Assembly (NCBI GenBank): GCA_964016885.1
Contig: OZ024742.1
Location: 104,842,001 to 104,906,000 of the forward strand
Direction of reading: 5' to 3'
Source of the DNA: Eledone cirrhosa
Taxonomy: Eukaryota
DNA: 64,000 nucleotides
Part shown: positions 38,582 through 39,173 of the stretch, one piece after another
Layout of the letters: every line of letters starts with the position of its first letter
How positions within the stretch are numbered: the first letter of the stretch is position 1
Notes under the pieces: model-generated
What the model saw: the letters and a program-made list of their open reading frames with translations, nothing else
Told to the model about the DNA's origin: nothing
Databases searched by the model: none
Translations under genes and position numbers: made by a program

Positions 38582-38620
38582 TATAATATAAGATCAAAAG
38601 ATGGTTAAAGGAGTTCAATG

Positions 38621-38690
38621 TATTTTATTATGCGCATTTCAAAAACAAACATCATCATGCAATAATATTTGTGTTTTCATCAGATAAAAC
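38621..38690 (-). ncRNA. Type I hammerhead ribozyme motif (mirror copy in left arm)
   Basis: Reverse complement of 38811-38880. Confidence 0.8.
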
Positions 38691-38810
38691 AGGAGAACAT
38701 GATATGAAGGCTAAAAAACACTTGTGGATAGTGCAGTTTTAAATCAACATATGTTGATTTAAAACTGCACTATCCACAAGTGTTTTTTAGCCTTCATATC
38801 ATGTTCTCCT

Positions 38811-38880
38811 GTTTTATCTGATGAAAACACAAATATTATTGCATGATGATGTTTGTTTTTGAAATGCGCATAATAAAATA
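38811..38880 (+). ncRNA. Type I hammerhead ribozyme motif
   Basis: gttttat-CTGATGA (38818). Stem II aaacacaaatattatt/gatgatgtttgttttt. GAAA-T-GCGC-ATA (palindromic tetraloop, AUA site). ataaaat completes stem I. Confidence 0.8.
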
Positions 38881-39173
38881 CATTGAACTCCTTTAACCAT
38901 CTTTTGATCTTATATTATGCATACTCCAGTCCTACAAACTGTAGAGTGCTTCTTATCCGATATCTGCATTGCTTTATTGTACTACAATAAAACTCACCTC
39001 CTACATTATACATATATATATATATATATGTAGAAGTTCTATTTAAATTGTTCCATTTGATGCGGGAATGGTCGGGAGACCATGTCTTGCTCGTACGGAA
39101 GTGTCTCTGGCAGGTTTTTTACAGCTGGATGTCCTTCCTAACACCAACCACATTTAAAGTGTATATATATATA

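Follow-up and report, generated by a model that had tools for sequence, protein, structure and literature searches.

Insertions of Penelope-like elements (PLEs) are described in PMC8557442 as bearing an inverted, 5'-truncated copy at their 5' end and a tail of 30-40 bp on one side only. In the rotifer Penelopes treated in PMC3846280, the head-to-head junctions form palindromes, and self-priming on an antisense template was proposed there. The pLTRs of such elements can harbor minimal hammerheads, and PMC4209133 reports dual motifs on opposite strands, about 100-700 bp apart. How the inverted ends are formed is called unresolved in both PMC8557442 and PMC11167929. In the latter work, both target strands are cut and then extended by PAc (Poseidon, Anolis) in vitro, with reverse transcription (RT) beginning at a pair of internal sites on either side of the tail; hammerhead cleavage is not required. 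For L1, PMC11702581 reports an extra 5' G in full-length insertions that reflects the mRNA cap.

We analyzed a palindrome in a stretch of 64,000 nucleotides of the Eledone cirrhosa genome (hereafter the window; contig OZ024742.1 of assembly GCA_964016885.1). Its combination of inverted pLTRs, a one-sided tail and hammerheads on opposite strands is the PLE architecture that is already described. Upon recomputation, the arms of the inverted repeat (38583-38750 and 38751-38918) are fully complementary over 168 bp with a spacer of 0 nt, so the loop-less perfect palindrome of 336 bp announced in the original prediction is real as an arrangement of letters. The whole insertion is 424 bases long (38583..39006) and is flanked on both sides by (TA)n. 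We number the element from 38751, which is position +1; window position 38749 is position -2. The features of the insertion are listed in Table 1. Over 256 nt, the long arm shows 2 mismatches to L068, a full-length copy of the element. The 3' tail with its hairpin had been presented as unique and as giving the orientation. It does give the orientation, but it is the standard tail of the family and is unique only within the insertion.

Table 1. Features of the insertion and of its target, in window coordinates.
Feature	Position	Strand	Remarks
Left (TA)n target microsatellite	38516..38582	.	Family copies terminate in (TA)n
Short, tail-less inverted pLTR arm	38583..38752	-	Outer end maps to 165-168 of the element
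Inner end of the short arm		-	Putative RNA start; ATAT (38749-38752) common to both arms
Mirror copy of the minimal type I hammerhead	38621..38691	-	Core from 38683; mirrors 38810-38880
Loop-less junction CATATG	38748..38753	.	38749 is the first base of thousands of family copies
Long arm, pLTR part	38749..38918	+	99% identity to the pLTR of full-length copy L068
Minimal type I hammerhead	38810..38880	+	Predicted cut after A38872
One-sided PLE tail of 88 nt	38919..39006	+	Hairpin 38974-38992; lies between two putative RT start sites
Right (TA)n target microsatellite	39007..39030	.	Flanks the insertion

A very high-copy, SINE-like interspersed repeat with an ATC-repeat tail flanks the insertion at 38270-38495 and 39060-39560, and more copies of this repeat lie near 36770 and 37170. 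Another loop-less perfect palindrome, of 76 bp and outside the family of the insertion, occupies positions 34651-34726 and may be another inverted junction. The window also has a match to U2 snRNA on the minus strand (23874-24024, 49.3 bits) with a good 5' part and a 3' part that enters a microsatellite; this is probably a truncated pseudogene.

We searched the species' own genome (3.0 Gb) with positions 38751-39006 and obtained 65 matches from the 40 candidates that were scored out of 95. Among the matches listed, four loci, including the window, are 100% identical across the 256-nt long arm. The three other loci support a very recent event, as had been proposed. The exact 40-bp centre of the window's palindrome was found at 543 loci, and a control with the reversed pattern at 0. 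Hence, the palindrome is not a chance occurrence. Longer copies run upstream into the 3' UTR and the ORF. To describe the insertions we used a sample of 41, picked with inner-end patterns that favour the -2 boundary (45 loci, of which 4 were removed as second-arm views of the same insertion; a complex locus probably appears twice among them, as L101 and L114). Inverted pairs make up 37 of the 41. In the usual form, found in 34 of the 41, a short arm with its end at 163-175 is paired with an oppositely oriented long arm that stops at 250-258. The two outer ends are fixed and lie 88 nt apart. The remaining insertions are 3 other inverted pairs and 4 single short arms, and no tandem head-to-tail hammerhead monomers were found in the 41. 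Rather than being a unique structure, the palindrome represents the pLTR plus tail of a Penelope-like retrotransposon that is Hydra-like and abundant. At one locus (L030:1096-1759), two long copies stand tail-to-tail over a (TA)n run, contrary to the head-to-head arrangement that is common in this family.

Among assembly artefacts, perfect palindromes form a known class, and a fold-back chimeric read might have produced this one. No listed read or contig covers the locus with unique flanks on both sides, which is what one would see if this were the case. However, the asymmetric ends (168/256) obey the rule of the family, the left and right flanks differ, and other copies carry mismatches between their arms, unlike a fold-back. 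Moreover, read-derived contigs cross the centre of the palindrome (X1 record 5 and X2 record 10). These differ from the window by 4 letters and probably derive from other copies; the X1 and X2 runs may come from the assembly's own sample. RAD-seq reads and contigs pile up from many copies and are hence not locus-specific. Taken together, an artefact is extremely improbable.

The element behind these insertions was identified from 12 long loci, chosen from a protein search that listed many open frames of 821 aa. All 12 have such a frame together with a pLTR of the window type, and 11 of them have an inverted pLTR copy too. The ORF starts 16 nt downstream of the tail in full-length copies, and the complete order in L068 is pLTR, tail, ORF, about 1 kb of 3' UTR, pLTR and tail, with a unit period of 3,692 bp. 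In the 3' UTR of L068, just upstream of the pLTR start, a segment of about 210 bp is duplicated in tandem (about 8115-8535), the two units having diverged to 80% identity. Another full-length copy is adjoined by a retrozyme-like tandem array (L074:216-2075) with a spacing of about 310 bp and a hammerhead core per unit (six seen).

The ORF carries the motifs DKT, FDIASYYSS, YRDD, CxCx5C, a GIY-YIG-like motif, CxxC before an E and CxH after an N. The YRDD motif is invariant across 26 aligned sequences. A model built from this 26-sequence alignment has a mean pLDDT of 82.7, and its best fold match is the telomerase TERT 3du5 (E 6e-8). Sequence searches of Pfam and the PDB with the ORF named no family, and a precomputed PF26215 assignment is present on 12 of 25 homologs. 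One homolog comes from an argonaut. The GIY-YIG domain is recognized at the C-terminus at the level of motifs (LIYECKIITSTNSFTYFG at 699, RLYNH at 725, and a later E and N), profile and fold searches having given no match specific to this domain. The window's pLTR is thus that of full-length elements with RT and GIY-YIG, and the family, which may already be catalogued, is a new member of the endonuclease-bearing (EN+) PLEs.

The motifs suggest that the element probably belongs to the Hydra clade; the Neptune clade had been our first guess and was given up after the motif check. DKG is replaced by DKT (SDKTN at 143), with DK[TS] in 21 of the 25 homologs, and GxKF/Y is absent. The CxCx5C linker reads CNCRIKNKC at 680 and is followed by CNLCLNE at 780 and N...CLH at 799, while no Cx2-5CxxC was found in the 821-aa ORF. 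RWT stands where the Hydra clade has RWK, and RW[KR] is found in 14 of the 25 homologs. With regard to the CCHH motif, which the Hydra clade lacks, the GIY-YIG core of the element contains a single Cys. The insertion target is (TA)n, as in the Hydra clade. The unit of 3,692 bp exceeds the length of less than 3 kb given for this clade, which PMC8557442 states as a tendency and not as a rule.

Each arm of the palindrome has the fold of a minimal, dimer-type, type I hammerhead. On the plus strand, helix I pairs 38810-38817 with 38873-38880, and the core is made of CUGAUGA (38818-38824) and GAAA (38861-38864). Helix II is long, with about 15 bp, and the self-complementary AUGCGCAU (38864-38871) takes the place of a stable helix III before the predicted cut after A38872. 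The claim of a complete hammerhead on each strand holds as far as the fold in each arm is concerned. It has to be qualified in that the motif is minimal and of the dimer type, has an A-U pair at 10.1-11.1 instead of the usual G-C (A-U in 37 of 38 distinct copies), and is not assigned by Rfam: no hammerhead family reached the gathering threshold over the window, and none was among the 76 matches up to E=10 for 38400-39200. The microRNA matches given by Rfam, with scores far below gathering, were discarded as hairpin artefacts. The helix pairs are retained in 34-38 of the 38 distinct copies (out of 155 indel-free ones), with four positions that alternate between G-U and A-U; these are related copies with almost no two-sided change, and the core was demanded by the search pattern. 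Elsewhere in the window, two PLE-type minimal hammerhead cores of other families lie about 220 bp apart on opposite strands (10939 on the plus and 11161 on the minus strand), with the self-complementary helix III sequences ATGATCAT and ATATATAT. Two canonical-looking cores, with G after CUGAUGA and C before GAAA, are found at 10048 and 44328 on the plus strand and are unrelated to the family.

For one arm together with its tail, RNA folding predictions give helix II a probability of about 0.99 and helix I one of 0.01. The read-through RNA is predicted to fold into a long hairpin with an MFE of -284.6 kcal/mol, in which the pair probabilities of helices I and II are 0.0. That the hairpin competes with the ribozyme fold was thus correctly foreseen, to the point that the hammerhead is abolished in the predicted read-through RNA. 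Two copies of the helix III sequence pair with each other at a predicted -10.5 kcal/mol, as expected of a dimer-type motif. Because a single motif of the minimal type (the monomer) failed to cleave in one case tested (PMC4209133), and a hammerhead in another case required the protein of the element (PMC11167929), there may be little hammerhead activity to silence at this locus.

The cut of the ribozyme could in principle define the end of the template, and this candidate was rejected. Copies starting at the predicted cut, recognized by a non-A base before it, are 74 of 10,687, against 74 at a control position, i.e., there is no excess in a test that is blind to junctions ending in A. Among 30 of these copies that we inspected, 19 are truncations. 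Since starts at the cut are not in excess, the template is likely to be uncleaved RNA. The hammerheads would be passengers in the pLTR.

The identity of the arms had been attributed to a very recent event or to ongoing conversion. To separate the two, we compared the arms of 56 head-to-head pairs, a set compiled without 15 duplicate, complex or tail-to-tail loci and without the 29 ORF-centred loci L038-L066. At subfamily-diagnostic positions, 22 of 817 cells (2.7%) are discordant between the two arms, whereas 1,000 shuffled pairings gave a discordance of 29.8%, with a minimum of 22.4%. Private changes affect one arm in 41 cases and both arms in 7, and 21 of the 56 pairs are still identical. 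This pattern indicates that both arms were copied from one template at insertion and drifted independently afterwards. As the arms are born matching and later changes are mostly one-armed, wholesale conversion is not needed, and the claim of ongoing conversion is not sustained, even if the 7 two-arm variants leave room for some conversion. The copy in the window is simply young.

These data also bear on the idea of a functional palindrome, kept identical by conversion, whose dsRNA would silence the ribozyme and feed ADAR or Dicer. Such a role would be in line with the read-through transcript predicted as a hairpin without a hammerhead fold, with the small RNAs to which rotifer Penelope copies give rise (PMC3846280), and with the 7 variants common to both arms. 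Yet most private changes are confined to a single arm, this young copy is just one among hundreds, and the predicted cut shows no surplus of insertions that begin there. Nothing points to selection at the locus or indicates that the hairpin is a selected function. We consider this reading highly improbable. A locus-specific regulatory purpose is not needed, since the same, known PLE architecture is found in hundreds to thousands of copies.

The inner end of the copies is sharply defined and is fixed at the base equal to 38749. We counted 4,262 copies with a non-C base before position -2, together with 4,356 read-through copies, compared with 74 at the control position. In 2,111 of the 4,262 the base before -2 is a G, where the DNA has a G content of 13-16%. 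As a control we took the C-A step at -10/-9, which lies 7 nt further upstream; a hand count of the first 100 copies listed gave 97 T, 3 A and 0 G. This control serves the comparison of G only, because a T subfamily variant dominates there. Of the 217 copies listed behind 10 A/T bases, the first 100 have G 69 times and C, the genome-templated base, 31 times (hand count; p=1.8e-4). At L088 an extra base is present on both arms, a C and a G. When 14 loci with G were inspected (two insertions being viewed from both arms), the G was clearly untemplated in only about 5; for the others, the partner arm, position -3 and a short duplication are possible sources. Judging from these counts, base 38749 likely marks the capped 5' end of an RNA.

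The junctions vary around this base. That of the window, CAAC-ATAT-GTTG, matches the product of annealing two cDNAs that end in ATAT. Others overlap by 2 nt, are joined bluntly with a G, or have one of the arms shortened. The inserts in the junctions of L100 and L107 repeat the element's first 8 nt one or more times, which suggests repeated template jumps at the 5' end of the RNA.

We think it likely that the locus is a short head-to-head insertion of pLTR and tail into (TA)n, produced by RT from both cut strands on the 5' end of one RNA. The resulting stub is non-coding and most likely without a function of its own. The RNA of the element would start, with a cap, at the 5' pLTR base that corresponds to 38749, and the GIY-YIG domain would nick both strands of the (TA)n target. 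One nick would prime cDNA at the downstream site (the end of the tail, about 256) and the other at the upstream site (about 168). As these sites lie near the 5' end of the RNA, both cDNAs would reach that end and stop there, at lengths of about 258 and 170 nt, in many cases with a C added opposite the cap. Their 3' ends would then be joined, here by annealing of the self-complementary ATAT, and fill-in would give the loop-less palindrome. A difficulty is that both arms often reach -2: the same stretch of RNA would have to be copied twice, which may occur by strand displacement or on two RNAs from one source locus. We lean slightly towards the full scheme, in which one capped RNA is primed from both strands at two sites 88 nt apart close to its 5' end, its 170 nt are copied twice up to the cap with an extra G left on one arm or on both, the ends are joined, and thousands of stubs are the record of it, to the single base.

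The inverted arm might instead result from self-priming (snap-back) of a single cDNA or antisense template of the same element, as put forward for the palindromes at the inverted junctions of rotifer Penelopes (PMC3846280). Snap-back accounts for the identity of the arms, and a cDNA whose end reads CATATG would be able to fold back. However, the arms at L085 (256-177 with -2-168), L090 and L093 do not overlap; they cannot be copies of each other, and two primings are needed to make them. In addition, the complete arm may be either of the two (L079 vs L096), the junction of L088 has an extra base on both arms, and a loop-less junction would require priming by one base pair. Snap-back is, in our view, rather unlikely.

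One may also ask if the palindrome of 424 bp moves as a non-autonomous unit in its own right, similar to a MITE or a retrozyme, with every copy taken in full from a master palindrome. This would explain the exact centre common to 543 loci, and pLTRs are the reported source of animal retrozymes (10.64898/2026.07.22.740005). But the junctions differ from locus to locus around one fixed base, and the 15 perfect-centre loci inspected differ from one another and from the window while their arms match within each locus. Furthermore, identical short and long ends also delimit multi-kilobase inverted insertions, and the inspected copies are head-to-head, with no tandem monomer arrays. Copying from a master palindrome is thus very unlikely. 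The preferred reading, priming from both strands on one RNA, does not alone explain where full-length copies start, because 0 of the 12 begin at -2; their starts lie within the pLTR, or partial tandems carry them beyond its upstream end.

The locus is ordinary transposon debris, a known footprint and not a new ribozyme switch. The family is a large and young natural data set on how PLEs build their inverted ends, to which it adds scale, the 88-nt tail, the signature of the extra G and the negative result for the ribozyme cut. It makes testable predictions: the RNA should start at -2, RT should begin at about 168 and 256, the G should derive from the cap, and ribozyme-cut RNA should not be used. 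If the proposed mechanism is true, two-strand priming replaces antisense self-priming as the origin of head-to-head PLE palindromes, and uncleaved RNA rather than the ribozyme product is the template in vivo. The at least 543 loop-less palindromes of this genome, and probably thousands of near-palindromes, are potential sources of dsRNA and cruciforms.

Within the open-access literature covered, we found no description of palindromes that consist of the pLTR alone and terminate at a capped start. The insertions of EN+ PLEs described in PMC8557442 and PMC3846280 share with the present one an inverted pLTR beside a direct one, a palindrome at the junction, a tail at one end, a hammerhead within the pLTR and partial tandems. 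The present insertion differs from them in consisting of the pLTR only, in its sharply fixed inner end and in the frequent extra G, and the tail of the family has 88 nt instead of 30-40 nt. With the Hydra clade, compared on the motifs given in PMC8557442, the element has in common the C-terminal GIY-YIG, DKT, CxCx5C, the CxxC and CxH around E and N, the lack of GxKF/Y, the (TA)n targets and the hammerhead, whereas it has RWT and 3.7 kb where the clade has RWK and generally less than 3 kb. Its hammerhead resembles the minimal PLE hammerheads of PMC4209133 in being of type I, with a long helix II and a palindromic helix III suited to dimers, but it has A10.1-U11.1 for G-C and longer helices than is typical (8 bp for helix I and about 15 bp for helix II). 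Non-LTR retrozymes (10.64898/2026.07.22.740005) are also short, non-coding hammerhead elements related to pLTRs; they form tandem arrays, whereas the present insertion consists of one head-to-head pair, formed anew at every site. The closest likeness in mechanism is to PAc, which extends both strands and uses two RT sites bracketing the tail (PMC11167929), and to the twin priming of L1, where a second priming gives an inversion and the cap gives a G (PMC11702581). In L1 the inverted parts barely overlap, whereas in the present family both arms, up to the putative 5' end of the RNA, often copy the same 170 nt.
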